A stretch of 64,000 nt of DNA from an uncultured Rhodanobacter sp. Its GTDB lineage: Bacteria > Pseudomonadota > Gammaproteobacteria > Xanthomonadales > Rhodanobacteraceae. The notes below the pieces were generated by a model. That model did no database searches, had not been told where the DNA came from, and worked only from the letters and a program-made list of their open reading frames with translations. Positions 1 through 60,228 of this stretch are shown here, in pieces (within the stretch, counting starts at the first letter, position 1; each line of letters starts with the position of its first letter). Location of the stretch: contig CAZAXF010000003.1 in NCBI GenBank assembly GCA_964489055.1, forward strand, positions 11,087 to 75,086. Direction: 5' to 3'. The translations under genes were made by a program, and so were the position numbers.

Positions 1-169
1 GGTAGCCGGTGTCGCTGCCGCTGTTCCTGCCGCTGCCGAAATAGCTGTGGCCAGCGCTGCCGTTGAGGAAAAATCCGCTGTCGGTGCCGGTGGCTTCCTG
101 CGCGAGGGCGGGAGCCGTCGCGATCAAACCGGCGGCGGCGAGGGCGAGAACGATTGCAGTGTTGCGCAT
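1..169 (-). CDS. Secreted / outer-membrane beta-barrel-like protein, N-terminal 56 codons only (gene runs off window start)
   Basis: Reverse translation from ATG (169-167): MRNTAIVLALAAAGLIATAPALA-QEATGTDSGFFLNGSAGHSYFGSGRNSGSDTGY. This is a Sec signal peptide with an ALA-Q site followed by a Gly/Ser/aromatic-rich segment. It is absent from the ORF track because it is truncated. Confidence 0.45.
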   Translation of the reverse strand, partial: MRNTAIVLALAAAGLIATAPALAQEATGTDSGFFLNGSAGHSYFGSGRNSGSDTGY

Positions 170-288
170 GGTTGTCTCCACTTGTGGGAATTCGCGCACG
201 CAGATGCATGCGCTTGTCCGGTGGGACTGGCGGCAATCGGCAACGTTCGTTAAGAATTCGATGGGGTGTCAGGCGTTGTTCATCGCGT

Positions 289-1452
<1,164 letters not shown>

Positions 1453-1502
1453 GTGAGTCCCGGGAAACTGCCGGCCTGCGACGGCTACCTTGGCACGTTA
1501 TC

Positions 1503-2912
1503 ATGCAGCTGGAACCGTTTACATCCGCCGAATCCGCGCCGATGCCCGACAACCCGGAAACCGCCCAGACGCCATTCCCGGACGGGTTCCTGTGGGGTTG
1601 CGCGACTTCCGCGTACCAGATCGAAGGCTCGCCGCTGGCCGACGGCGCGGGCGTGAGCAACTGGCATCGCTTCGTGCACACGCCGGGCCGCGTGCGCGAT
1701 GGCGACACCGGCGATGTCGCCTGCGACCACTATCGCTGCTGGCGCGATGACGTGGCGCTGATGCGCACACTGGGGCTCGGCGCCTATCGCTTCAGCATCG
1801 CCTGGAGCCGGGTGTTGCCCGAGGGGCGTGGCCGGGTCAACCCCGCGGGCCTGGCGTTCTACGACCGCCTGGTCGATGCCCTGCTGGAGAACGGCATCCA
1901 GCCCATGGCGACGCTTCACCACTGGGATCTCCCGGTAGCCCTGGATGATCGCGGTGGCTGGCTCAATCCCGACAGCGTGGCCTGGTTCACCGACTACGCG
2001 CAGGTCCTGTTCGACAAGCTGGACGACCGTGTCCGGCTGTGGGCAACCCTCAACGAGCCATGGGTGGTCACCGACGGCGGTTACCTGCACGGGTTGATGG
2101 CGCCCGGCCACCGCAGCGCCTTCGAGGCGGTGATCGCGGCGCACCACCTGCTGCTGGCGCACGGCGCCGCGGTCGAGGCCTATCGCGCCACCGGCCGCAA
2201 CCGGATCGGCATCGTGGTCAACCTGGAACCGAAGTATCCGGCCACGCAAAGCGCCGAAGACCTTGCGGCCACCGCGCGCGCCGATGCCTACATGAACCGC
2301 CAGTTCCTGGATCCGGTGTTCCTCGGTCGCTATCCGGACGAGTCGCGCGAGGTATTCGGCGCTGCCTGGCGCGAATGGCCATCCGAAGACCTGGCGCGGA
2401 TCCGCCAGCCGCTGGATTTCGTGGGCGTGAACTATTACACCCGCAGCGTGGTTCGGGACGATCCGCGGGCGTGGCCGCTGCGCGCCGCCGGCGTGCGACA
2501 GAAACAGGCCACGCACACCGAAACCGGTTGGGAGGTGTACCCGGAGGGACTGACCGATGTCCTGCAATGGGTCAGTGAACGCTACGGTCGCCCGCCCATC
2601 TACATCACCGAGAACGGTGCCGCGTTCTACGATCCGCCGACCGTGGAAGATGGATCGGTGGCCGACCCGCTGCGCGTCGCCTACCTTCGCGGACACCTTC
2701 GCGCCGCCCGCGCGGCAATGGAGCGCGGCGTGAACCTGCGCGGCTACTTCGCGTGGTCACTGCTGGACAACTTCGAGTGGGCACTCGGCTACGCCAAACG
2801 CTTCGGCCTCGTGCACGTCGACTACGCCACCCAGCAGCGCACCTTGAAGGACAGCGCGCGCTTCTACGCCGGGGTGATCGCCACGCACGGCGCAGCCATC
2901 CAGGCCGCCTGA
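1503..2912 (+). CDS. GH1 beta-glucosidase
   Basis: 469 aa. It has an FLWGCATSAYQIEGS N-terminus, acid/base TLNEP and nucleophile YITENG motifs. It is divergent from the ATPase gene. Confidence 0.95.
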   Translation: MQLEPFTSAESAPMPDNPETAQTPFPDGFLWGCATSAYQIEGSPLADGAGVSNWHRFVHTPGRVRDGDTGDVACDHYRCWRDDVALMRTLGLGAYRFSIAWSRVLPEGRGRVNPAGLAFYDRLVDALLENGIQPMATLHHWDLPVALDDRGGWLNPDSVAWFTDYAQVLFDKLDDRVRLWATLNEPWVVTDGGYLHGLMAPGHRSAFEAVIAAHHLLLAHGAAVEAYRATGRNRIGIVVNLEPKYPATQSAEDLAATARADAYMNRQFLDPVFLGRYPDESREVFGAAWREWPSEDLARIRQPLDFVGVNYYTRSVVRDDPRAWPLRAAGVRQKQATHTETGWEVYPEGLTDVLQWVSERYGRPPIYITENGAAFYDPPTVEDGSVADPLRVAYLRGHLRAARAAMERGVNLRGYFAWSLLDNFEWALGYAKRFGLVHVDYATQQRTLKDSARFYAGVIATHGAAIQAA

Positions 2913-2920
2913 GCAGCAAG

Positions 2921-2962
2921 CCCTCCCATTCAAGGGGAGGGTCCGGGTGGGGATGGGTCTGG
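2921..2962. terminator. GC hairpin plus GGGGATGG tail (variant of the hairpin-A repeat family), downstream of the convergent bgl and permease genes
   Basis: CCCTCC-cattcaag-GGAGGG followed by tccgggtGGGGATGGgtct. It has the same architecture as 4834-4875 and 25284-25325. Confidence 0.5.
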
Positions 2963-3010
2963 ATGCCTGGAGTGGTTCCGGAGCCCCTGACATCGAACGT
3001 GCGCCGCTTC

Positions 3011-3832
3011 TCACCCCTTCACGCTGCCGAGCAGCAGGCCACGCAGGTAGTAGCGCTGCAGTGCCAGGAACAGCAGCAGCACCGGAATCACGGTCACCAC
3101 CGCGCCGGCCATCATCAGGCCCGAGTCCTGCACGTGTTCGCGCGAGAGCGAGGCAAGGCCGACGGGGAGGGTGTAGTGGTCCTGCCCGGTCAGGGCGATC
3201 AAGGGCCACATGAAATCGTTCCAGGCGGTGAGGAACGTGAACACCGCCAGCGTCACCAGGATCGGCTTGAGCAGCGGCAGCACCACCCGCACGAAGATGT
3301 GCGCTTCTCCCGCGCCGTCGACGCGGGCCGCTTCCAGCAGTTCGCCCGGAATGCTGCGCGCATACTGGCGCACCAGGAAGATGCCGAACACGCTGGCCGC
3401 GGCCGGCAGGATCACCGCCCAGTAGGTATTCACCAGTCCCACGTATTTCAGCAGCAGGAACAGCGGCAGCATGGCCACCTGCGCCGGGATCACCAAGGCG
3501 CCGATCAGCACCCCGAACAGTCTTTCGCGCCCGGCGAACCGCAGCTTGGCGAACGCGTAGCCGGCCAGCGTGTTGCACGCCAGCGACAGCAGCGTGATGG
3601 CGACCGAGATGATCAGGCTGTTGGCGAAATACCGGCCCATGCCGGCGTGTGCGAACAGCTCACGATAATTGTGGAGGGTCGGATCCAGCGGCAGCATCGG
3701 CGGTGGCAGCGTGTTGGCCTCGCCCGGTTGCATGAACGATACCGACAGCATCCAGAAAAGCGGAAACAGCGCCAGCGCGGTGCAGGCCAGCAGACTGCCG
3801 TTGACCAGCCACTTTGCCGCGCGCGGAGTCAC
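3011..3832 (-). CDS. Carbohydrate ABC transporter permease (MalG/UgpE-like)
   Basis: GTG at 3832 overlaps the upstream stop (GTGA). It has six hydrophobic segments and the EAA loop ELLEAARVDGAGEAHIFVRVVLPLLKP. The ORF-track entry 3011..4906 over-extends upstream. Confidence 0.9.
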   Translation of the reverse strand: MTPRAAKWLVNGSLLACTALALFPLFWMLSVSFMQPGEANTLPPPMLPLDPTLHNYRELFAHAGMGRYFANSLIISVAITLLSLACNTLAGYAFAKLRFAGRERLFGVLIGALVIPAQVAMLPLFLLLKYVGLVNTYWAVILPAAASVFGIFLVRQYARSIPGELLEAARVDGAGEAHIFVRVVLPLLKPILVTLAVFTFLTAWNDFMWPLIALTGQDHYTLPVGLASLSREHVQDSGLMMAGAVVTVIPVLLLFLALQRYYLRGLLLGSVKG

Positions 3833-4710
3833 GCGAAGTCCCCGCGGGCCCGGCCGAACCGCCACATCAACGCGGTGGCGGCGAACATCACCAGGAACAG
3901 CAGGAACGCCACGGCCGAGGCGGTGCCCATGTTCCACCACTTGAAGCCCTCGTTGTACATCAGGTACAGCACGCTCACCGTGCTCTGCAGCGGTCCGCCC
4001 TCGGTGATCACGTAGGGTTCGGCGAACAACTGGAAGTAACCCGATACGGTGAGGATGCCGACCAGCACCAGGATCGGCGAGAGCGCGGGCAGGGTGATGT
4101 GGCGAAACTGCTGCCAGCCGGAGGCCCCGTCGATGCGCGCGGCTTCGTACAGGTCGGCCGGGATCGCCTGCAGTCCGGCCAGCAGGATGATCATGTTGTA
4201 GCCGAAGTTCTTCCACACCGCGAACAGGATGATCATGGGCATCGCCCAGTGCGGGTCGCCCAGCCAATCGATCCGCGGCAGACCCAGGTGCACCAGCACG
4301 AAGTCGACCACCCCGAATTGCGGGTTGAAGAGATAACGCCAGATCACCGCCACCGCCACCACCGTGGTCACCACCGGTGCGAACAGCGCGGTGCGGAACA
4401 GCGGCCTGCAACGCGCCGCCTGCGCGTTCAACAGCATCGCGGTGCCCAGCGACACCAGGATCGACAGCGGCACGCCGACGATCACGAAATACAGCGTGTG
4501 CCCCAGCGCGGCCCAGAACAGCGGGCGGTGCAGCAGGGCCCAGTAATTGGCCAGCCCGACGAAGCGCAGGTTGTGGATGTCCGCGAGTGCGTACAGGTCG
4601 TAGTCGGTGAGGCTGAGCCCCAGGCCCGCGAGCACCGGCAGCAGGAAAAACACGCCCAGCACCAGCAGCGCCGGCGCCAGGAACCACCATGCGGCCGATG
4701 CACGGTTCAT
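3829..4710 (-). CDS. Carbohydrate ABC transporter permease (MalF/UgpA-like)
   Basis: Start chosen at MNRASAAWWFLAPALL (ATG 4710; the ORF extends to 4755). EAA loop DLYEAARIDGASGWQQFRHITLPALSP. Confidence 0.9.
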   Translation of the reverse strand: MNRASAAWWFLAPALLVLGVFFLLPVLAGLGLSLTDYDLYALADIHNLRFVGLANYWALLHRPLFWAALGHTLYFVIVGVPLSILVSLGTAMLLNAQAARCRPLFRTALFAPVVTTVVAVAVIWRYLFNPQFGVVDFVLVHLGLPRIDWLGDPHWAMPMIILFAVWKNFGYNMIILLAGLQAIPADLYEAARIDGASGWQQFRHITLPALSPILVLVGILTVSGYFQLFAEPYVITEGGPLQSTVSVLYLMYNEGFKWWNMGTASAVAFLLFLVMFAATALMWRFGRARGDFA

Positions 4711-4774
4711 GGCGTGGCGCATCCTGCACGAACTTTCCGATACCGTGGCGCACATCCGCCCGACGCTTCGCGTC

Positions 4775-4875
4775 GACCCCCTTCCTGCGTACGGGGGTGA
4801 TTAACCGGGTGCCGCGTGGGGGCACGCTGATCTTCCCCCTTCGCTTGCGAAGGGGGATCGAGGGGGATGGCTTTT
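4775..4875. repeat. Two GC-hairpin repeat elements (type B 4775-4806, type A 4834-4875)
   Basis: B is GACCCCCTTCctgcgtacGGGGGTGATTaacc. A is TCCCCCTTCGCTTGCGAAGGGGGATCGAGGGGGATGGCTTT. Near-identical copies of both occur at 25284-25389. Confidence 0.85.
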
Positions 4876-4951
4876 GGCGTGGGCGCATCCGTTGCTTCGC
4901 GGCCAAACGAAACGGTGTGGCGTTGCGGCCCGTTCGTACCCCGCACGGCGT

Positions 4952-6223
4952 TCATTTGTCCTGCCTCGCCAGTACCCAGCGGCGTTTGGCAAGAATCGTA
5001 TCCGCCTGCGCGTCCATTTGCGCGGTGGCCTGATCGATGCTGAGCTTGCCCGCGATCGCGCGCGCGGCGATGTGCTGCATCATGTTGACGATCTGTTCCC
5101 ACTCGGGCACCTGCGGCGCCGGGCGCATGTGTTCCATCTGGGCGCGGAAGGCGCGCAGCTTCGGATCATTTTGCAATACCGGATCGTTCCACGCGGATCG
5201 CCGCGCCGGCAGGTCGCCCAGGCGTTCGTAGAAGCGCACCTGCACGTCGGGCCGTGACAGGTATTCGATCAGCTTCCAGGCGGCGTCCTTGTGCCTGGAA
5301 TGACGCAGGATCACCAGGCTGGAGCCGTAGGCCACCGAGTCGCCGGGACCGTCCGGCCCGGGCAATTGCGCGGTGGACCAGTCGCCCTGCCTCGAGGGCG
5401 ACAGGCGCCGGCGGAACTCGCCGATGTTCCACGGCCCGGAAAGGTAGAACACGAACGTGCCGTGCGCGAACGACTGCCACGGATTGCCCACCTGCACGTT
5501 GGTCCAGTCGGGCACGTCGCCGCGCCGGAACAGTCCCACGTAAAAGGCCAGCGCGCGCTTGAAGCCGGCACTCTGGAAATTGCCGTAGCGCCCGCCGTCG
5601 CGCAGCAGCGGTACCTGTTGTTGCAGCGCCAGCGCCAGCAACTGGTCGTATTCGTTGGTCGGCAGCAACGCGCCCCAGCGCTTGCCGTGGCTGTCCGCGC
5701 GGATCGCATCCATCTGCGCCTGCCATTGGGCCCAGGTGCGCGGCGGCGCGTCGAAACCGGCCTCGCGCAGCAGGTCGGTGCGGTAGAACAACAGCCGCGT
5801 GTCGACGTACCAGGGAATCCCGTACAGCCTGCCGTCGATGACATTGGTCGCCCAGGCACTTGCGAAGTAGTCGTCCTGTCGAATCACGTGTGAAGCGTCG
5901 ACGCGGCCCTGCAGCGGTTCCAGTGCATGCAGCGCCGCGAACTCGGCGATCCAGGTGTTGCCGATCTGGGTGACGTCCGGCAGCGAATCGCCGGCATAGG
6001 CCGTCAGCAGTTTTTCGTGCGCCGCGGTCAGCGGGATCTGTTGCACGCGCACGTGGATATCCGGGTGTGCGCGTTCGAACGCCGGCAACAGTTGCGTGAC
6101 CGTCTCGCCTTCGCTGCCGACCGTCCAGAACTCCAGCGTCACGCCGTGCCGGCCGGGATTGGTGCAGCCGGCCAGCAACAGCATGGCTGCGCATGCGGCG
6201 GCCCGGACGAGGCGCCCGGTCAT
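4952..6223 (-). CDS. ABC transporter extracellular solute-binding lipoprotein (family 1, oligosaccharide type)
   Basis: 423 aa with lipobox MLLLAGC. It shows typical family-1 SBP similarity. Its ATG overlaps the upstream stop (ATGA at 6220-6223). Confidence 0.9.
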   Translation of the reverse strand: MTGRLVRAAACAAMLLLAGCTNPGRHGVTLEFWTVGSEGETVTQLLPAFERAHPDIHVRVQQIPLTAAHEKLLTAYAGDSLPDVTQIGNTWIAEFAALHALEPLQGRVDASHVIRQDDYFASAWATNVIDGRLYGIPWYVDTRLLFYRTDLLREAGFDAPPRTWAQWQAQMDAIRADSHGKRWGALLPTNEYDQLLALALQQQVPLLRDGGRYGNFQSAGFKRALAFYVGLFRRGDVPDWTNVQVGNPWQSFAHGTFVFYLSGPWNIGEFRRRLSPSRQGDWSTAQLPGPDGPGDSVAYGSSLVILRHSRHKDAAWKLIEYLSRPDVQVRFYERLGDLPARRSAWNDPVLQNDPKLRAFRAQMEHMRPAPQVPEWEQIVNMMQHIAARAIAGKLSIDQATAQMDAQADTILAKRRWVLARQDK

Positions 6224-7893
6224 TGCGTTGCAAGCCTGCGGGCGCGCACCCGTTCCCGGAAAGATGAATCATGCCGCGGTGGAGCGCTGCACCCAGAATC
6301 GCCCGACGCGTAGGGCGGACATTGTCCGCCGGCGTGTGCCGCGACGGGCAGTGCCCGTCCTACCCGTGCCGCGGCGGGCGGTGTCCGCCCTGACGGCTCC
6401 GCGGCGGCTTCCAGCCAGCCGCCGGTGAATCCGGCGCGTTCGAGGCCACGGCGGATATACGGGTTCTTCTTCATCACCTTCCACACGAAACCCGAGCGGT
6501 AGTTCTCGATCATCAGCAGGATCGGCCCCTGGTCGATGCCCAGGTATTCGTTGTCGAACCAGCCTTCACCGGGCACCACCCGGCCCGTACGCACCTTGGC
6601 GTTCTCGAGGCGGAAGGTGGGGTTGAATGCGTCCTTGAAGCCGTATTCCGAGTACAGCCATTTCCCGTAGCGCTGGTACATCACCTGGATCGTGGGCAGC
6701 ACCAGTTCCGGTGCGAACACGATCGATGCGATCGACGCGGTCGGCGCGATGGTGCCGTCGTCGACGATGTGCCCGACGTCGGCACCGCGCGCGAGGTATC
6801 CGTGGAACTTCACCTGCGTTCCGTCGCCGCGCGTGAACGTGAAGTTGCCAGGGCCGTTGCAGGCCGTGAGGCCCCAGATGTCCTTGCCGTAACCGGTGAA
6901 ACGCCCGCCGCCTGACACCGCGTAGGCGTGCTGGCCGACCACCGAGCGGCGGCTGTTCTCGAAGTAGTCGAGATCATGCGCGCGCATGAAGGCGTCCTGG
7001 ATGCCGCGGAAATCGATCCACGCCTCGCTGTACTGGTGTCCGAACAGCGGCGCGAAACCGATGTGCGGCAGCCCGCCCATGAAGCTGCCCCAGGTCAGGT
7101 GGTAGGTCGATGTCCACGCCTCCCACGCGTCGGGTTGCACCGGGTGGGTGGGCGAGCCGAGCGCGAGGATGTACAGGATCATCGCCTCGTCGTAGCCCTT
7201 CCAGTCGTGCGGGATGAACTTTCCGCCCGGCGTCCAGCCCATGCTGATCAATGGTGCGCGCACCTGGGCCCAGTTCCAGTCCACGTTGCGGTAGAGCTCG
7301 TCCGCAAGCCGGCGGATTTCGCGTTCTTCGGGATTGTCGCGATCGAAATAGGACTGGTCGAACAGCACGCCGGCCATCAGCAGCGTGGTGTCGATGGTCG
7401 AGACTTCGTCGCGGCGGCTCCAGCGCTTGCCGCTTTGCATGTCCAGGAAGTGGTAGAAGAATCCGTGGTAGCCGGCGTCGTCGTCCTCGTCGGTGCCCTG
7501 CGGCGCGTTGGCGAAAAAGCGCAGCGTGGTCAGCACGCGCTGGCGCGCCTGTTCGCGGGTGATCCAGCCGCGCTCGACGCCGATCGGGTAGGCCGTCAGC
7601 GCGAAGCCCACCGCCGCGATGCTGGAAAACGGCGTCTTGCCCATCGGCCAGTGGTCGGGCACCAGGCCGTTTTCCGGGTTGGCCGTCTGCCAGAAGAAAT
7701 TGAAGGTACGGTGTTCGAGCTGATCGAGCGACAGCGTCGCCGGCGCAACCTGCGTGGACAGCGCCGGCTGTGTGCGTTGCGCAGCGGCCTGCAGCGGGGA
7801 TGCCAGCACCAGCAGGCCCAGCAGGATCCCGGTGCCGGCCTTGCGCGCGAATCCAGCCAGGGTGCCTGAAAACTTTCCCGCCCATCCGCTCAT
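6220..7893 (-). CDS. GH144-like (DUF3131, 'glucoamylase family') protein, candidate endo-beta-1,2-glucanase
   Basis: 557 aa with a signal peptide (LLVLASPLQAAAQ). The body matches my memory of DUF3131/GH144 proteins (FNFFWQTANPENGLVPD, GFFYHFLD, STIDTTLLMAGV, GIDQGPILLMIENYRSG, AGFTGGWL). The last ~65 codons read through REP elements. Confidence 0.8.
   Translation of the reverse strand: MSGWAGKFSGTLAGFARKAGTGILLGLLVLASPLQAAAQRTQPALSTQVAPATLSLDQLEHRTFNFFWQTANPENGLVPDHWPMGKTPFSSIAAVGFALTAYPIGVERGWITREQARQRVLTTLRFFANAPQGTDEDDDAGYHGFFYHFLDMQSGKRWSRRDEVSTIDTTLLMAGVLFDQSYFDRDNPEEREIRRLADELYRNVDWNWAQVRAPLISMGWTPGGKFIPHDWKGYDEAMILYILALGSPTHPVQPDAWEAWTSTYHLTWGSFMGGLPHIGFAPLFGHQYSEAWIDFRGIQDAFMRAHDLDYFENSRRSVVGQHAYAVSGGGRFTGYGKDIWGLTACNGPGNFTFTRGDGTQVKFHGYLARGADVGHIVDDGTIAPTASIASIVFAPELVLPTIQVMYQRYGKWLYSEYGFKDAFNPTFRLENAKVRTGRVVPGEGWFDNEYLGIDQGPILLMIENYRSGFVWKVMKKNPYIRRGLERAGFTGGWLEAAAEPSGRTPPAAARVGRALPVAAHAGGQCPPYASGDSGCSAPPRHDSSFRERVRARRLATQ
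6310..6394. repeat. Three GTAG-headed REP (SMAG-like) palindromes in alternating orientation
   Basis: GTAGGGCGGACATTGTCCGCC (6310-6330). The reverse complement of 6341-6363 is GTAGGACGGGCACTGCCCGTCGC. 6373-6394 is a degenerate third copy. Confidence 0.8.
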
Positions 7894-39749: not shown

Positions 39750-40497
39750 AAGAACGCTTGCCACAGATCAAGAGCATCGGACGCGGATCGACGCGGATTC
39801 CCGCGGGTCAGAAGCCCTTGTCCGCGTTTGTCCGCGCAAATCCGCGTCAAAAGCTCTTTGCCACGGATTGACACGGATGCCACGGATCAGAAGCATTCTG
39901 ACGCGGATCGACGCGGATGCCCGCGGATCAGAAGCCCTTGTCCGTGTTTGTCCGCGCAAATCCGCGTCAAAAGCTCTTTGCCACGGATCTACACGGATGC
40001 CACGGATCAGAAGCATTTTGACGCGGAGCGACGCGGATTCCCGCGGGTCAGAAGCCCTTGTCTGCGTTTGTCCGCGCAAGTCCGCGTCAAAAGCTCTTTG
40101 CCACGGATTGACACGGATGCCACGGATCAGAAGCATTTTGACGCAGAGCGACGCGGATGCCCGCGGATCAGAAGCTCGCATCCGTGTTCATCCGTGCAAA
40201 TCCGTGGTCGAGATTGCCGTCGTGGTTGCGAGCCGTGGACGCGGATCGACCCGGATACTGCGGAACAAGCACAGCTTCCATCCGCGTTTGTCCGCGCAAG
40301 TCCGCGTCAAGAGCGCTTTGCCACGGATCAAAAGCATTTTGACGCGGAGCGACGCGGATGCGCGCGGATTAGAAGCCATTGTCCGTATTCTTCCGCGCAA
40401 GTCCGCGTCAAGAGCGCTTTGCCGCGGATGAACACGGATGCCACGGATCAGAAGCCTTTATCCGTGTCGATCCGTGCAAATCCGTGGCAGAAAAGCC
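39750..40497. repeat. Hierarchical tandem array: three near-identical 120-bp units (39781, 39901, 40021) plus about four degenerate modules
   Basis: Exact 120-bp periodicity is visible in the raw lines. Each unit holds 10-bp-phased ACGCGGAT/CCACGGAT heptamer triplets and their inverted copies, with CAGAAGC loops. See findings. Confidence 0.95.
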
Positions 40498-45978: not shown

Positions 45979-45989
45979 ACGCGCCACTG

Positions 45990-46105
45990 CTCATCGAGAC
46001 CGGCTGAGGGACAGGCCCTTGGAAGCCGGGGCAACCCGCCGAACCTTTCCGGTTCGGCAACGGTGCCAACTCCTGCGGGGGCGCGAACGCCCGCCGAGAG
46101 ATGAG
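45990..46105 (+). promoter_or_regulatory. SAM-I (S-box) riboswitch
   Basis: P1 CTCATC...GATGAG. The conserved core is AGACCGGCTGAGGGACAGGCCCTTGGAAGCCGGGGCAACC, then a P3 hairpin CGCCGAACCTTTCCGGTTCGGC, then GGTGCCAACTCCTGC, then a P4 GGGGGCGCGAACGCCCGCC, then GAGAGATGAG. Confidence 0.9.
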
Positions 46106-46111
46106 CCGCAC

Positions 46112-53985: not shown

Positions 53986-56228
53986 GTCGCGACCTCGGTG
54001 GTTTCCTTGCTGCGGCCGAACTTGCGCAGGCCCGCCAGCAGCGCATTCCAGGCGCGGTCGAACATGCCGCTGTCCTGGGGCGGCAGCAGGTGGATCTGGC
54101 CGCGCGCCATCATGCGCGCAATCTGCTCGAGGCTGCGTTCCGGCGCTGCGGCGCCGCGCGCGTTCACCAGCAGGCAACGGCCGCTGCTCGGCGCATACCA
54201 GGCCAGCTTGCGGGCCACTTTCTGGCCCTGCTGGTTGACCGTGAATTCCAGCCAGCTTCCGAACGGCAGGGTCTTGAGCGTTTCCAGCGCCTTGCGCTCG
54301 GTCGGCGTAAGCGACAGCTTGCGCGGGCCGGGGGCGGCTTCGGGCTTGGCCTCCTCCGGTTTCTGGCGCGCCTTGAGGCGGATCAACAGTTCCGTCTGGC
54401 TGACTTCCGGGCCGGTGTCCTTTTCACTGGCCGGCAGGTCCAGCACGTGCCCGGTGATCTGTGCTGCCTCGCCGGCCTGCAGTCCGACCTGGGTCAGCCC
54501 GCGATTGAGTTCGGCGGCGAGCCGCCGGTTGTCGCGCGCGGTGGCCGGCCCCAGCAGCTCGTCGATAACGGCCAGCCGGCGCCGGTAGGTGTCGCTGTTC
54601 TCGCCTTCGCGCAGAAGCGTGAGGGTGAGTGCGTCGGTCCAGGCGTGTTCCAGCAGCGCGCGCACGAGCGGCGTGGCCTGTTTGTCGGCCAGGCGCCTGG
54701 CGATGGCCGCGCGCGCCTGCGCTCGCGAGGACTGCAGGCGGTCGCGGCCCTGGGCCGCCTCGACCTGCCGGCGTTCGGCGATCTCGGCGCGTCGCGTCAG
54801 CAACTTGAGGTGCGCGTCCAGATCGTCGGCTTCGCGTTCGACCACGGACAGGTCGCCTTGGTAATCCCTGGCGACGCGCTGCACGCAGCGCTGCAGGCGC
54901 TGGTTGAGCGCGGTGTCGAAACTGCCGTCGCTGCGATCGAGCCACAGGTTCGCGGTTTCCAGCACGCTGTTCAAAAGCCGCCGCGCGGGATGGTTGCGGA
55001 CGGTGAAGAAATTGCTGTCGGCCAGCGCGATCCGGAGCAGCGGCACCTGCAGCACCGTCATCAATTGCTGCGCGGTGCCTTCGGCACGCGTTTCCTGCAG
55101 CAGTCCGTCGTAGAGCAATGACATCAGGTCGATGGCATCGCGGTGGTCGGGCTGCAATTGCGGCGCTTCGCCCCCCGGGGATGCCTGGCGCAGTTGCGCC
55201 AGCAGATCCTTGCGCAGGCGTTCGCCGGCGTGTGGTGCCGCCTGTTTCACCGGCTGCGCCTGCAGCGCCAGCAACGCCGATTCAAGGTCCGCCAGCGAGG
55301 CTTCGCCGCCTGGGCCAGGATGCGGCGATGCCGCAGCGCCCGGGTCCAGCGCGCGGCGGCGTGCGTCCAGCAGGCCGTGCAGTTCGGCCATGGCGGGCGG
55401 CTGCGGCAGGGGCGCGGCGCCGCGGGGGGGCGAAAATTCCGTGACCGGCGCCATCGGCGTCGAAGCGGATTCGGTTTCGGGCTCGGGCGTGTCCGGCGTG
55501 GTCTCGTCCCTGTCCGGGTCCGGCGCGCTGCCGGCGCGCCGCGGCAGGTAATTGCGCAGGTACGGCAGGATGCCGGCATCCTTCAGTTCGTCGTTCAGGT
55601 GCCCGTAGAACGCCTCCGCGGCCGCGAACAGGCGCCGGTCGCACAGGCGGTAGAACAGCTTGCGATGATCGCCCTGCATGCCCAACGTACGGGCAGCTTC
55701 GCCCAGCACGTCGGCGAACATGTGCGGGCCACAGGGCAGGGCGTCGCCTTCCAGCGGCGGTGCGGCCACCAGCACCGCGTAGCGATGACACAACTCGAAC
55801 AAGGCGCTGCTGGCGTGCAGCTCGGTGCGTGAGGCCAGGTCGCCCAGCGCCATGCTTTCGTCGAATTCGTCGGGATCGACCAGCTTCAGGTCACTGTCGC
55901 CGGTTGCTGTCGAAATGACTGCATCGGCGGGTTCGGGCATGCCCAGCGCGCTGAAGCGCTGTTCCAGCAGGGCCATCAGGTAGCCGTGGAACCCGGTACG
56001 TGCACGCTTGATCTCGCGCAAGGCTTCCAGGGCCTCGTGCTGGGTCTGACCGCCGCTGGACTTCTCGGCAATCCGGAACAGTTCCTGCTCCAGGTCGTCC
56101 AGTGCGCCGCGCAGCAGCGGCTCGAGCAGTTCGCTGCATCCGGCCAGTTGCTGCTCCAGCAATTGCCGCGCGCGAGGGGCCAGATCGCCGCGGCTGGCAA
56201 GTGTCGACATGTGCGGGTGTCTTTCCAT
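53982..56228 (-). CDS. DUF1631-family protein
   Basis: ~748 aa, helical and acidic. The N-terminus LLEQQLAGCSELLEPLLRGALDDLEQELFRIAEKS is typical of DUF1631. The start is at 56228 or 56210. Confidence 0.75.
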   Translation of the reverse strand: MERHPHMSTLASRGDLAPRARQLLEQQLAGCSELLEPLLRGALDDLEQELFRIAEKSSGGQTQHEALEALREIKRARTGFHGYLMALLEQRFSALGMPEPADAVISTATGDSDLKLVDPDEFDESMALGDLASRTELHASSALFELCHRYAVLVAAPPLEGDALPCGPHMFADVLGEAARTLGMQGDHRKLFYRLCDRRLFAAAEAFYGHLNDELKDAGILPYLRNYLPRRAGSAPDPDRDETTPDTPEPETESASTPMAPVTEFSPPRGAAPLPQPPAMAELHGLLDARRRALDPGAAASPHPGPGGEASLADLESALLALQAQPVKQAAPHAGERLRKDLLAQLRQASPGGEAPQLQPDHRDAIDLMSLLYDGLLQETRAEGTAQQLMTVLQVPLLRIALADSNFFTVRNHPARRLLNSVLETANLWLDRSDGSFDTALNQRLQRCVQRVARDYQGDLSVVEREADDLDAHLKLLTRRAEIAERRQVEAAQGRDRLQSSRAQARAAIARRLADKQATPLVRALLEHAWTDALTLTLLREGENSDTYRRRLAVIDELLGPATARDNRRLAAELNRGLTQVGLQAGEAAQITGHVLDLPASEKDTGPEVSQTELLIRLKARQKPEEAKPEAAPGPRKLSLTPTERKALETLKTLPFGSWLEFTVNQQGQKVARKLAWYAPSSGRCLLVNARGAAAPERSLEQIARMMARGQIHLLPPQDSGMFDRAWNALLAGLRKFGRSKETTEVAT

Positions 56229-56329
56229 CGAATCCCCCATGGGTCGGGAATGCAAGCATCCTGCCAATCGGCGCCCAGTGCCGGGATTCTATGGAAGCCT
56301 GCGGCAAAGCGCCATGGCGGGTCCGACGG

Positions 56330-56512
56330 TCACTCGTCGCCGGTCCGGACGTCGACCGCGACCCGGTCGCCGTCGATGGTGACTTGTACCTGCATCGGGT
56401 TGCAACAGACCGGGCAATCTTCCACGTAGCCCGCCGAGCCGGCGGACGCGTCCACCAGCAACTCGATCGGCTCGCCGCAGTACGGGCAGTGGACGGAGAC
56501 GGGCTCAGGCAT
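56330..56512 (-). CDS. CPXCG-motif zinc-ribbon protein
   Basis: 60 aa with HCPYCG...CPVCCNPM. It overlaps the hemW stop by 8 nt. Confidence 0.8.
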   Translation of the reverse strand: MPEPVSVHCPYCGEPIELLVDASAGSAGYVEDCPVCCNPMQVQVTIDGDRVAVDVRTGDE

Positions 56513-57788
56513 GCCGGCGCGCCGCCTTGGCCGATGGCAGGAACGCCTCGATCACGTCGTTGAGGAAGCGTTGGCCGAGCGCCGTGGTCTGGAGGTATTC
56601 GGGATCGTCGACCAGCCAGCCCCTCGTGCGTGCCGCGCGCAGCGGTGTGGCGATCGCCGCGCGCGCGAGGCCGGTGCGCGCGGTGAATTGCGCGAGCGGC
56701 ACACCATCGTGCAATCGCAATGCATTCAACATGAACTCGAACGGCAACTGCCCGGCGGTGATGGTTTCGTTGCCCTTGATGCGCCGTGTCGAGGCCGCGC
56801 CCTGCAGATACGCACGCGGCGAGCGCACTTTCGCGCGCCGCCGGATCACCAATGCACCCGCGACCTGCGTCGTCCCCGGTCCCCGGTCCCCGGTCCCCGG
56901 TCCCGACACCTTTCCATGTGCCCCCGCCCCGATCCCGAGGTAATCCCCGAATTCCCAGTAGTTGAGGTTGTGCCGGCAACGCCGGCCCGCCTGCGCGTAG
57001 GCCGACACTTCGTACTGCGCATAGCCGGCTTCGGCCAGCCGCGTCTGACAGGCCTCCTGCATGTCCCAGGCGGCATCGTCGTCGGGCAGCGGCGGCGGAC
57101 GCTTCGCGAACGGCGTGCCCGGCTCCAGCGTCAACTGGTAGTGCGAGACGTGCGCGGGCGCCAGCGCGATGGCGCGTTCCACGTCCGCCATTGCGCCATC
57201 CAGCGTCTGGTTGGGCAGCGCGTACATCAGATCCAGGTTGATGTTGTCGCAGCCGGCATCCTGTGCCTGCTTCACCGCCGCCTCGGCTTCGCCCGCCGAG
57301 TGGATGCGTCCCAGCGCGCGCAGTTTTGCGTCATCGAAACTCTGCACGCCGAAGGAAATGCGGTTGACGCCCGCGTCGCGATAGCCGTCGAAGCGACCGT
57401 GCTCGACCGTGCCGGGATTGGTTTCCAGGGTGATTTCGCAGTCACGCGCGAACGGCAATCGTGCTGCCGCGCCATCGAGGATCGCGGCGATGGAATCGGG
57501 GGCGAACAGGCTGGGCGTGCCACCGCCAAAGAACACGCTGACGATTTCGCGCCCCGCCAGCGCGTCGCCGAAATCGGCAATGTCCCCGTCGAGGTCGGCC
57601 AGCAGCGCCGCCACGTATTCGCACTCGGGCATCGCCGCGCGCAGCCCGTGCGAATTGAAGTCGCAGTACGGACACTTCTTCACGCACCAGGGGATGTGGA
57701 TGTAGAGCGAAAGCGGGACCGGGGACTGGGGACCGGGGACCGGGCTTCGGCGGATTTCGGGCTGCGTCGTGGCTGGAATGGGGGGCAT
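56505..57788 (-). CDS. hemW: Radical SAM haem chaperone HemW (HemN-like, oxygen-independent coproporphyrinogen oxidase family)
   Basis: Start at MPPIPATT (ATG 57788). LYIHIPWCVKKCPYCDFNSH (CxxxCxxC). 427 aa, about 50 longer than E. coli HemW because of two heptamer-repeat-encoded inserts. Confidence 0.92.
   Translation of the reverse strand: MPPIPATTQPEIRRSPVPGPQSPVPLSLYIHIPWCVKKCPYCDFNSHGLRAAMPECEYVAALLADLDGDIADFGDALAGREIVSVFFGGGTPSLFAPDSIAAILDGAAARLPFARDCEITLETNPGTVEHGRFDGYRDAGVNRISFGVQSFDDAKLRALGRIHSAGEAEAAVKQAQDAGCDNINLDLMYALPNQTLDGAMADVERAIALAPAHVSHYQLTLEPGTPFAKRPPPLPDDDAAWDMQEACQTRLAEAGYAQYEVSAYAQAGRRCRHNLNYWEFGDYLGIGAGAHGKVSGPGTGDRGPGTTQVAGALVIRRRAKVRSPRAYLQGAASTRRIKGNETITAGQLPFEFMLNALRLHDGVPLAQFTARTGLARAAIATPLRAARTRGWLVDDPEYLQTTALGQRFLNDVIEAFLPSAKAARRHA
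56872..56905. repeat. Heptanucleotide microsatellite (GTCCCCG)x4.9, cluster a, inside hemW
   Basis: gtccccg gtccccg gtccccg gtccccg gtcccg. It is translated on the minus strand as [11 protein letters not shown] in a loop after GAHGKV. Confidence 0.95.
57715..57744. repeat. Same heptamer in inverted orientation (GGGGACC-type on + strand), cluster b, hemW codons ~15-25
   Basis: gggacc ggggact ggggacc ggggacc ggg. It is translated as SPVPGPQSPVP. Confidence 0.95.
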
Positions 57789-57820
57789 GGGCGTTGCGTG
57801 CTCTGGACTCGCGCGGAATG

Positions 57821-58576
57821 TCAGGTACTGCCGGTCCCCGGTCCCAGGCTTCCGCTTCCCGGTCCCCGGTCCCCGGTCCCCAGCGTCTGACGCAGCTCCG
57901 CCAACGCCCTTCCCCGATGACTGATCCGGTTCTTGACCGCCGGATCGAGTTCGGCGGAGCTGAGCCCGCCGCCGTCGTCGGGCAGGAACAGCGGGTCGTA
58001 GCCGAAGCCGCCTTCGCCGCGCGGCGCGGTGAGCACGCGGCCGGGCCAACGGCCGGTGGCGAGGATCGGGTCGGGATCGTCGGCATGCCGCAGCAGCGCC
58101 AGCACGCAGGTGAAGTGCGCACCGCGGCGATCTTCGGGCACGCCTTCCAGTTCGCGCAGCAACCTGGCGTTGTTGCCGGCGTTGTCGCCGTGCACGCCGG
58201 CGTAGAGCGCCGAATACAGGCCCGGCGCGCCGTCCAGCGCATCCACGCAGATCCCCGAGTCGTCGGCCAGCGCCGGCAGGCCCGACGCGCGCGTGGCGTG
58301 GCGCGCCTTCAGGATGGCGTTCTCGACAAAGGTCAGCCCGGTTTCCTCCGCATCGTCGATCCCGAGTTCGCGCTGCGAAACCAGCTCGATGCCGCTGCCC
58401 GCCAACAGCCCGCGCAGTTCGGCGAGTTTGCCGGCGTTGCCACTGGCCAGGACGATGCGTTCCCCCGGTCCCCGGAAACTCGCCGCTCCTGCGGCTCGCC
58501 CTCCGGGCCATCGGCTGCGCCGATGTTCGCTCCGGCATCCTGCCTCCGCAGTCCCGGTCCCCGGTCCCGGTTTCAT
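57821..58576 (-). CDS. rdgB: Non-canonical purine NTP pyrophosphatase (RdgB/HAM1)
   Basis: [21 protein letters not shown] and ISHRGRA are present. The only in-frame canonical start is the ATG at 58576 (ATGA overlap with the rph stop). This gives a ~40-aa N-terminal extension relative to typical ~200-aa RdgB proteins. Confidence 0.88.
57831..57881. repeat. Heptamer cluster c (2 + 3 copies) at the 3' end of rdgB
   Basis: ccggtccccggtccca ... cccggtccccggtccccggtcccc. It encodes the RdgB C-terminal tail [20 protein letters not shown]. Confidence 0.95.
58462..58475. repeat. Heptamer cluster d (2 copies) in the rdgB N-terminal extension
   Basis: cccccggtccccgg, translated as FRGPGE. Confidence 0.8.
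58551..58570. repeat. Heptamer cluster e (~3 imperfect copies) at rdgB codons 2-8
   Basis: gtcccggtccccggtcccgg, translated as KPGPGTGT. Confidence 0.85.
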
Positions 58577-59298
58577 GCGTCCAGCGCCTCCCGCTGCGCC
58601 TCGATCAACTTCCCGATCCCCTTCTGCGCCAGCGCCAGCAAGGCGTCCAGCTCGTCGCGTCGGAACGCGTGGCCTTCGGCGGTGCCCTGCAGCTCGATGA
58701 AACCGCCGCCGTCGTTCATCACCACGTTCATGTCGGTGTCGCAGTTCGCATCCTCGGCGTAGTCGAGGTCCAGCACCGGCGTGCCCTGGAAGATGCCGAC
58801 CGAAACCGCGGCGACGGCGCCGTGGATCGGGTTGCGCTTGAGCGTGCCGCGCTTCAGCAGCACGTTGACCGCATCGACCAGCGCCACGTAGGCGCCGGTG
58901 ATCGAGGCGGTGCGGGTGCCGCCGTCGGCCTGCAGCACGTCGCAGTCCAGCGTGACCACGCGCTCGCCCAGCGCCGCACGGTCCACGCAGGCGCGCAGGG
59001 AGCGGCCGATCAGGCGCTGGATTTCCAGCGTGCGCCCGCCCTGCTTGCCGCGTGCGGCTTCGCGCTGGGTGCGCTCGGTGGTGGCGCGCGGCAGCATGCC
59101 GTACTCGGCGGTCACCCAGCCTTCGCCCTTGCCGCGCAGCCATGGTGGCACGCGATCCTCGACGCTGGCCGTGCACAGCACCCGGGTGTCGCCGCAGGCG
59201 ATCAGCACCGAACCTTCGGCGTGCATGGTGTAGCGACGTTCGATGGTGACCGTGCGCAGCGCGTCGGGCGCACGGCCGGAGGGACGGGGAGTGGGCAT
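58573..59298 (-). CDS. rph: Ribonuclease PH
   Basis: 241 aa with [19 protein letters not shown]...[20 protein letters not shown]. Confidence 0.97.
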
Positions 59299-59367
59299 CG
59301 ACGAGGTATCCGTGCGAGACGTGCCAGTTTATCATCGCCCCTTGCAGGGCCCACGGGGAAACGCCGC

Positions 59368-60228
59368 ATGATCCGCAGCATGACCGCCTACGCGAACCTC
59401 GAGGACACGACGCCCCAGGGCTGGCTGGCGTGCGAGGTGCGGGCCGTGAACTCGCGCTTCCTGGAAACCGGCGTGCGGTTGCCTGACGAACTGCGCACCC
59501 AGGAGCCGGCGGTGCGCGAACGCGTCGCGGCCCGCCTGGCGCGCGGCAAGGTGGAGGTCGGTTTTCGCTACCGCCCGCCCGCGGCGGCCGCCGACCTGCT
59601 GCTGGACGAGAACACCGCCGCGCAACTGGCCTCGGCTGCGGAAACACTGAAGGCGCGCTTTCCGCAACTGGCCACCGACTTCGCGGGCCTGCTGGATTGG
59701 CCCGGCCTTCTGGTGAAGCCCGAGGTCGACCAGGCCGGGCTGGCGCAGGCGTCGCTGGCATTGCTGGATCGCACGCTGGACGAATTCATCGCCGGGCGCG
59801 AGCGCGAGGGTGCCAAACTCGCCGCGGCGTTGCGCGCACGGCTGGATGGCATCGAGCGGATCGTCGCCGAGGTGCGCGCGCTGCTGCCGGACGTACGCAA
59901 GGCGCTTCGCGCCAAGCTGGAATCACGACTCGACGAACTGCGGCAGGCGGCCGATCCCGGCCGGCTGGAGCAGGAACTGGTGCTGCAGCTTTCGCGCATC
60001 GACGTGGACGAAGAGCTCGATCGCCTCGATGCGCACGTTGGCGAGGCACGGCGAATCCTGGAACTGGACGAACCGGTCGGGCGGCGGCTGGATTTCCTGA
60101 TGCAGGAATTCAACCGCGAGGCCAACACGCTGGCGTCGAAATCGGCCGACCCGCGCGCCACCCGCGCCGCGGTGGATTTGAAGGTACTGATCGAACAGAT
60201 GCGCGAACAGGTGCAGAACCTGGAGTGA
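59368..60228 (+). CDS. yicC: YicC-family stress-induced protein
   Basis: MIRSMTAYA...[11 protein letters not shown]... The C-terminus reads [16 protein letters not shown]. 286 aa. Confidence 0.93.

Follow-up and report, generated by a model that had tools for sequence, protein, structure and literature searches.

Heptamer tracts in rdgB and hemW of an uncultured Rhodanobacter: probable members of a dispersed G-rich repeat family translated in frame

How does a tandem repeat with a unit of seven nucleotides come to lie at five places within the coding sequence of two housekeeping genes? The question is raised by a stretch of 64,000 nt from an uncultured Rhodanobacter sp. (contig CAZAXF010000003.1, positions 11,087 to 75,086; hereafter the window), in which tracts of the heptamer GGGGACC lie in rdgB and hemW of the rph-rdgB-hemW operon. 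A sequence-only reading of this stretch had offered three possible answers, namely hypermutable contingency or variable number tandem repeat (VNTR) sites, control mediated by G-quadruplexes (G4), or the footprint of a small repeat that spreads locally. The last of these comes closest, but in other genomes the repeat is dispersed at unrelated genes and not merely spread locally. We consider it probable that the tracts represent a Rhodanobacteraceae variant of the G-rich heptamers known from Xanthomonas and Nostoc, that is, passenger dispersed elements translated in frame. The Nostoc heptamers are the cyanobacterial STRR repeats.

A tandem heptamer with a run of three or four G, repeated for 2-4.7 units, is present at five places. 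With Tandem Repeats Finder (TRF), arrays of period 7 come out at 56872-56904 (4.7 copies, 100% match), 57715-57744 (on the opposite strand; 4.3 copies, 91%), 57831-57881 (in two blocks with GGGAAGCGGAAGCCT between them) and 58553-58568, and on inspection the tract at 58462-58475 consists of two imperfect heptamer units, so that the five tracts first noticed by eye are confirmed at their positions. The two-unit pattern GGGGACCGGGGACC, allowing at most one mismatch, has 10 matches in the 64-kb window against 0.12 expected, all of them in 56871-58569, and none of 100 shuffled windows held 10 matches. The same region contains 11 of the window's 13 single GGGGACC copies, and no other GGGAC-type period-7 array was found elsewhere in the window, in agreement with the earlier impression that the repeat occurs nowhere else in it. 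Searches of Rfam, permissive on 56000-59500 and at the gathering threshold on the whole window, gave no match to the arrays or to the core that accompanies them.

By their arrangement, the five tracts are pieces of elements at three putative insertion sites and not five independent microsatellites. The parts are the following.

56872-56905, minus strand: solo heptamer array of 4.7 x GGGGACC, 33 nt (a multiple of three), HemW residues ~295-306.
57715-57744, plus strand: 3' arm of the palindromic rdgB/hemW junction element, 4.3 units, 30 nt, HemW residues 15-25 (SPVPGPQSPVP).
57745-57830, minus strand: loop or spacer of the junction element, with the stop codon of rdgB (57821-57823) and the start codon of hemW (57786-57788) inside it.
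57831-57881, minus strand: 5' arm of the junction element, 51 nt, RdgB C-terminal tail, residues 232-251.
58462-58475, minus strand: right-hand flanking array of the rph/rdgB array-core-array element, 2 units, RdgB residues 34-39.
58478-58554, minus strand: 77-nt core, consisting of GGACTGCGGAGGCAGGATGCCGGAGCGAAC, a hairpin, then GGCCCGGAGGGCGAGCCGCAGGAGCGGCGAGT, RdgB residues ~8-33.
58551-58570, minus strand: left-hand flanking array of the rph/rdgB element, ~2.8 units, RdgB residues 3-9, straight after the ATG on the rph stop.

At the first site, between rph and rdgB, an array, the 77-nt core and a second array stand in place of the spacer. The second, between rdgB and hemW, is a palindromic element of ~167 nt, in which a loop of ~86 nt separates a G-rich arm from a C-rich one; it spans the rdgB stop and the hemW start and thereby lengthens RdgB by 21 amino acids (aa) and HemW by ~25 aa. 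The third holds a solo array, at the tip of a beta-hairpin in HemW. Within the junction element, the arm at 57715-57744, being G-rich on the plus strand, is C-rich in the mRNA, where it reads (GGUCCCC)n, and the opposite arm (57831-57881) reads (GGGGACC)3.4, then a GGGAAGC-GGAAGCC terminus, then 2.3 units more; a GGAAAGC-like terminus also follows many arrays at other loci.

Orthologous loci L001, L004, L005, L006 and L054 were retrieved via HemW homologues. The window, L001, L004, L005 and L054 share the positions of the rdgB-tail and hemW N-terminal arrays, and the insertion hotspot within HemW is likewise orthologous: in the window, L001, L004, L018 and L054 the heptamer arrays start at the same nucleotide after GAHGK, as an array alone in the window and L054 and as array-core-array in L001, L004 and L018; L005, too, has an array at this hotspot. 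The hemW N-terminal arrays hold 3.4-4.3 units in the five carriers of the junction element and are perfect in L004 and L054. In the outgroup L006 there is neither a junction element nor an array at the hotspot, and the rdgB stop and hemW start overlap as ATGA; many HemW orthologues show the empty state GAHGKLTDAHAVRRRWK at the hotspot, which bears out the suggestion that the inserts are lineage-specific. The window has its core at rph/rdgB and its solo array in hemW, the reverse of the pattern in L001, L004 and L018; relocation may lie behind this, or coincidence. A strictly genome-specific unit was considered and rejected, as L004 has GGGGACC at the junction and GGGGCTC with GGAACTC at the hotspot. 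Within ten clusters of HemW at 90% identity or more (~60 sequences), in which the arrays are short and imperfect and to which the window's own HemW, a singleton cluster, does not belong, the hotspot arrays differ by point changes and never in unit number.

The spacer between rph and rdgB has other occupants in the relatives. Another small palindromic repeat, with ends CGTCATTCCGG...CCGGAATGACG, fills it in L004 (~4370-4560) and L054 (~4170-4270) and also adjoins core copies in L021, L028 and L041, suggesting that small repeats cluster as mosaics. In L005 an AT-richer insert of ~300 nt lies between the two genes (5061-5357), carrying a called open reading frame (ORF) of 98 aa with no Pfam match, and insertions in general may thus use the spacer as a landing site. 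L001, a metagenome-assembled genome (MAG) from Centralia, has an island with an integrase, a DnaG-like primase and DUF3987 beside yicC, upstream of its rph operon (1-7400).

In related bacteria the core is also found outside this operon. The window's core region is 87% identical over 106 nt to L001 10914-11013, inside hemW (E 6e-28), and the core is also found within hemW of L004. The peptide TAEAGCRSE... is read from it in L001 HemW and in window RdgB, and the peptide of a different frame in L004, indicating that the DNA and not the peptide is conserved; at least three frames or orientations of the core are translated. A 20-mer of the core was used to scan one genome per species and matched 47 loci, ~28 of them whole cores and the rest chance matches in unrelated phyla. 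All whole cores belong to Rhodanobacteraceae, Dokdonella, Rudaea or unclassified gammaproteobacterial MAGs, and they form a multi-copy family, with nine copies in one MAG, six in another and three in a third. Most are flanked on both sides by arrays of GGGACTC, GGGACCC or GGGAATC (GGGAATC or GGGAGTC in Dokdonella), the usual layout being (GGGACTC)n, core, (GGGACTC)n, GGAAAAGC, and the copies of one MAG are heptamer-free and lie within a larger repeat. In-frame copies confirmed by Pfam occur in six protein families, PheT, LeuS (two copies), LpxB, RecD (in the opposite orientation), an IcmF-like protein and HemW, and with RdgB included this is a multi-copy short repeat read in frame at permissive sites of unrelated protein genes. 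The presence of the same core at unrelated genes of relatives means that the repeat is dispersed and is not a local microsatellite.

The same positions have been occupied repeatedly. In PheT, a hotspot after RLFE.GVVF exists in empty, solo-array and array-core-array states (PheT of L012 and homologues P0179-P0298), and the core is present even in P0298, which is only 63% identical to the query. Among 120 cluster representatives, the array peptide is recognisable at the HemW hotspot in 17 and the core peptide in 4, and the corresponding numbers for PheT are 10 and 3. In two cores of the Bin4_1 MAG (L019, L020) a nested insertion of ~50 nt follows GGCAGG, so the core can itself be a target of further small insertions.

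The core is constrained as nucleic acid. The window copy is 87-99% identical to those in other genomes (80% for one Dokdonella copy), whereas hemW third codon positions of the window and the fetched relatives are only 58-69% identical. Its central hairpin, 7 bp with a 3-nt loop at 58509-58525, shows double changes that keep pairing, from CATCGGC/GCCGATG to CGTCGGC/GCCGACG with a G.T intermediate, and further compensatory changes from CGGC/GCCG to CCGC/GCGG or CAGC/GCTG, as scored by script. RNAalifold on a MAFFT alignment of 29 core copies missed this hairpin because the long and short core variants were misaligned. Folded as single-stranded DNA, the rph/rdgB element as a whole reaches a z score of only -1.67 and is thus not a strong overall palindrome. 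The core had no blastn match in plasmid and phage collections; its 44-aa peptide gave two short matches only in a protein database, the query being too short for the E-value scale. String searches of the literature for GGGAATCGGGAATC and GGGACTCGGGACTC retrieved no papers, and GGGGACC alone returned primer noise only.

A further regularity comes from metagenomes, where a scan for (GGGGACC)3 gave at least 120 loci. Among the 80 matches listed there are 86 arrays, and an inverted array follows within 300 nt downstream in 28 of the 86 and upstream in none. Among these matches the G-rich arm is thus always 5' on both strands, and a single polarity argues for one element type with defined ends, since independent slippage would give both arrangements. 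None of the 80 loci listed matched the core or the window, which is uninformative on the source species.

The genes concerned, all on the minus strand, are as follows.

58573-59298, minus strand: rph (Pfam).
57821-58576, minus strand: rdgB, Ham1-family dITP/XTP pyrophosphatase of 251 aa (Pfam Ham1p_like, residues 41-230).
56505-57788, minus strand: hemW, radical SAM heme chaperone of 427 aa with two repeat-derived segments (Pfam Radical_SAM and HemN_C).
56330-56512, minus strand: CPXCG zinc-ribbon gene (Pfam).

All tracts fall in the only workable predicted frames of rdgB and hemW. The ATG at 58576, which overlaps the rph stop as ATGA, is the only ATG, GTG or TTG 5' of the conserved N-terminal motif of RdgB, so that a canonical start downstream of the N-terminal tracts and 5' of this motif, which had been named as the outcome that would undo their translation, is not available. 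For hemW, the ATG at 57788 is the only canonical start 5' of LSLYIHIPWC, and the next start, a GTG at 57683, would cost the first Cys of the CxxxCxxC motif. Given that the sole usable start codons lie upstream, the tracts must be translated if RdgB and HemW are made, and on this logic the view of the sequence-only reading that they are translated inside both genes holds, as do the RdgB and HemW peptides it quoted, which are correct in the codon view. The 251-aa RdgB product also appears on the NCBI record, and the nearest named homologues of HemW are from Rhodanobacteraceae.

The positions were described as tolerated, and this is supported. In RdgB the Ham1 domain is complete, flanked by an N-terminal extension of 40 aa and a C-terminal tail of 21 aa made of repeat DNA, and in an AlphaFold2 (AF2) model of HemW (mean predicted local distance difference test score, pLDDT, 80; predicted template modelling score, pTM, 0.83) the insert forms the tip of a beta-hairpin with strands at 291-297 and 313-320, pLDDT falling below 50 at residues 1-22 and 299-310 and otherwise only in a few loops. 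A basis for such tolerance lies in the sequence: the units GGGGACC, GGGACTC, GGGACCC and GGGAATC are stop-free in every frame, and no stop interrupts any of the six frames of three full element copies, a state shared by only 6% of random 110-nt segments of the window. With no stop in six frames of units and core, a copy at a permissive site needs only a length divisible by three, and when translated it is a disordered segment rich in Gly, Pro, Thr, Asp and Arg. In several Rhodanobacteraceae, HemW homologues (P0019, P0020, P0030, P0048 and P0076) carry a DUF559 (PF04480) plus PF18741 endonuclease-like domain fused to their N-terminus.

The known repeats that come nearest are those of Rehm et al. 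(2015; PMC4692102), who found 186 and 183 GGGAATC-type repeats per genome in Xanthomonas and repeats of GGGGA(C/T)T in Nostoc; four units were preferred, convergent inverted pairs numbered 70-75 per genome, and 7-11% of the repeats overlapped ORFs. The G-rich strand is coding at the stop codon and non-coding before the next start, and the repeats form G4 in vitro as judged by circular dichroism (CD), no function or regulatory role being found (PMC4692102). The window tracts share with this class the tandem 7-nt unit, the run of three or four G, a mode of about four units (4.7 and 4.3 in the window), the convergent inverted pair, formed by 57831-57881 on the sense strand across the end of rdgB and 57715-57744 on the antisense strand where hemW starts, and a host order, Xanthomonadales/Lysobacterales, to which Xanthomonas belongs. 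They depart from it in the unit, GGGGACC as against GGGNATC in Xanthomonas and GGGGA(C/T)T in Nostoc, although a sole GGGGACT unit at 57721-57727, in the tract 57715-57744, matches the Nostoc unit exactly; relatives carry GGGACTC or GGGACCC, and Dokdonella GGGAATC or GGGAGTC. They differ, too, in that all five window tracts are in reading frames, one of them mid-enzyme, where only a minority of copies of the published class overlap ORFs, and in that Rhodanobacteraceae arrays flank a conserved 77-nt hairpin core which is itself dispersed. As the features compared here, namely the build of the repeat, its number of units, its pairing and its placement, are shared except for the unit consensus, the tracts are best taken as a sequence variant of the class in a sister family.

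Other systems are analogues. Rickettsia palindromic elements (RPEs) are described, in the review PMC10969869 after Ogata et al. (2000), as small non-coding repeats lying in frame in unrelated housekeeping genes, and they too add a peptide at fold-compatible positions and are multi-copy per genome; however, they are palindromes of ~100-150 bp read in one conserved frame, whereas here heptamer arrays are open in six frames, their hosts are Rickettsia and not a free-living, high-GC gammaproteobacterium, and there is no sequence relation, so that our element is an analogue and not a member. REP/BIME/REPIN sequences resemble it as short GC-rich hairpin repeats, often in inverted pairs, placed after stop codons within operons, clustering as mosaics with small repeats and homogeneous in sequence within a genome. 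Yet REPs are extragenic, with a single imperfect palindrome, a conserved 5' tetranucleotide and a link to RAYT transposases, whereas many copies here are intragenic and their stems consist of tandem heptamers. The (GGGGACC)n/(GGTCCCC)n arms of the junction element, which pair over ~26 bp, recall the terminal inverted repeats of MITEs (miniature transposable elements with inverted repeats), unlike the rph/rdgB element, whose flanking arrays are direct.

Taken as passenger dispersed elements, the three sites could have arisen as follows. Elements would insert, or be copied, by some mechanism, and their arrays would then grow and be homogenised by slippage or gene conversion. Between rph and rdgB, an element would have replaced the spacer and the original rdgB start, so that RdgB would now start at the ATG on the rph stop and read through the element. 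The palindromic element at the rdgB/hemW junction would extend both proteins, and the solo array in the HemW beta-hairpin loop, where relatives carry array-core-array, may have come about by loss of the core through recombination between the flanking direct arrays. In this operon the elements would be selfish or neutral passengers, with at most side effects through the ~26-bp RNA stem or G4.

Several points weigh against this account. Neither a transposase nor a target-site duplication, nor any other direct sign of mobility, came to light, the genomes not having been searched for a transposase; a target-site duplication would be indistinguishable from the arrays, and array-free core copies have no flanking direct repeat. 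The Xanthomonas repeats, too, are generally without association to mobile elements (PMC4692102). The repeats are confined to the rph-rdgB-hemW operon in the 64-kb window, which is all of the source genome covered here, and in relatives likewise within 10-21 kb; three repeat sites clustered in one operon across five genomes look more like a conserved local feature than like random dispersal. The junction arms stay complementary across the five genomes despite the change of unit, which could mean selection for structure. Finally, translation of the extensions is predicted from start-codon logic and gene calls.

Another possibility, to which as a whole we would give only tentative credence, goes further and holds that arrays and 77-nt core together make up an active, undescribed non-autonomous mobile element of Xanthomonadales. 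The core would either target existing heptamer arrays or carry them as its ends, recognition by a trans-acting enzyme would keep it 87-99% identical across genomes, it would be homogenised within genomes, and essential genes would be colonised in frame at recurrent loop hotspots, making the element a free-living, high-GC counterpart of the RPEs. If true, this would give the G-rich heptamers of Xanthomonas and Nostoc a mobile-element origin.

The structure of the junction leads to a different explanation. The G-tract of the rdgB tail and the C-tract at the hemW N-terminus are complementary, and a stem of ~26 bp is predicted around the stop and start codons, with a fold of -96 kcal/mol (z -3.0; none of 200 shuffles as good); the fold is predicted in all five element-bearing genomes (z -2.5 to -4.6). 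Three tracts contain G3+N1-7 repeated four times as a sequence motif. Two of them, 56874-56904 and 57858-57881, carry at least four runs of three or more G on the sense strand, and the third, 57715-57744, does so on the antisense strand; in the two N-terminal tracts of rdgB there are two or three G-runs and no canonical G4. Going by published CD on related units, formation of G4 by the window tracts is plausible. The earlier count of four textbook G4 tracts out of five on the transcript has to be corrected, as only two qualify on the sense strand, and the proposal of G4-mediated control keeps its motif in three tracts but loses ground at the rdgB tail, where 57858-57881 pairs with the C-rich arm, so that duplex and G4 would compete.

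It could accordingly be argued that the inverted junction arrays, and possibly the G4 tracts, are retained as functional nucleic-acid structures that tune rph-rdgB-hemW expression, by REP/BIME-like stabilisation of upstream mRNA, by gating of hemW initiation, or by pausing of polymerase or ribosome at G4s. This appears rather unlikely to us. A change of unit does affect both arms at once, which read GGGGACC/GGUCCCC in the window, L004 and L005 and GGGACCC/GGGUCCC in L001 and L054, those of L001 being mixed with GGGACUC/GAGUCCC, and the loop between them is unconserved in sequence between genomes; yet in L054 and L004 the 5' arm has only one or two units left, and the outgroup L006 and many relatives have no element. 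The hemW N-terminal arrays keep their 3.4-4.3 units although nearby synonymous sites are saturated, and related units show both a four-unit preference and G4 formation in vitro, but the published study that established this found no regulatory role (PMC4692102). Of the two tracts with four G-runs on the mRNA, one is sequestered in the predicted stem, and the same arrays and core turn up in unrelated ORFs, where both their orientation and their frame vary.

That each tract is an ordinary microsatellite, grown in situ by slippage from a chance GGGACC-like seed with no mobile element involved, we consider improbable. According to the summary of Mrazek et al. (2007) in PMC4679880, heptanucleotides outnumber all other long simple sequence repeats (SSRs) in many bacteria, X. 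campestris being among the richest; some empty HemW sites read SGTGD, a possible seed, and the arrays of many homologues are seen to decay by point mutation. This leaves without account, however, the identical 77-nt core at non-homologous sites, the convergent polarity (28 versus 0 in the 86 arrays among the matches listed), the shared GGAAAGC-type terminus, and the fact that one unit is common to the five window tracts and another is found at the orthologous sites of relatives.

Least credible by far are contingency (phase-variable) loci at which gain or loss of one 7-nt unit switches rdgB or hemW on or off, for although, as in the SSRs of Haemophilus and Neisseria (with units of 1-5 nt against 7 nt here), the tandem repeat lies in an ORF and its unit is not a multiple of three, and although the 4.7-unit hemW array is perfect, these are housekeeping and not surface or restriction genes, every array length in intact orthologues keeps the frame, near-identical relatives in the ten HemW clusters vary by point changes only, and the Xanthomonas study concluded likewise (PMC4692102), so that the hypermutable contingency or VNTR sites first proposed find no support.

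Elsewhere in the window, an intergenic block of ~750 bp (39750-40490) contains a higher-order tandem repeat of 120 bp, 3.7 copies at 90% match, composed of short palindromic sub-repeats of the GACGCGGATC / GATCCGCGTC type, and a SAM (S-adenosylmethionine) riboswitch, RF00162, lies at 45988-46107 on the plus strand (80 bits), the sole Rfam match above the gathering score in the window.

The G-rich heptamers of Xanthomonas and cyanobacteria are abundant and form G4 in vitro, and they have stood without a known origin or role. If the tracts are members of the same class, as seems probable, it is widened to Rhodanobacteraceae with the units GGGGACC, GGGACTC and GGGACCC, and in these bacteria a strongly conserved 77-nt core with a hairpin, which behaves as a dispersed repeat, is physically linked to the arrays. 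Arrays and core have been tolerated in frame repeatedly and at the same loop hotspots of essential enzymes, in HemW, PheT, LeuS, LpxB and RecD, and for annotation this offers an explanation of odd Gly/Pro-rich extensions and inserts in proteins of Xanthomonadales. Should a mobilising activity be found, the family would provide a tractable model for the entry of selfish repeats into proteins and for the tolerance of G4-capable DNA within genes.

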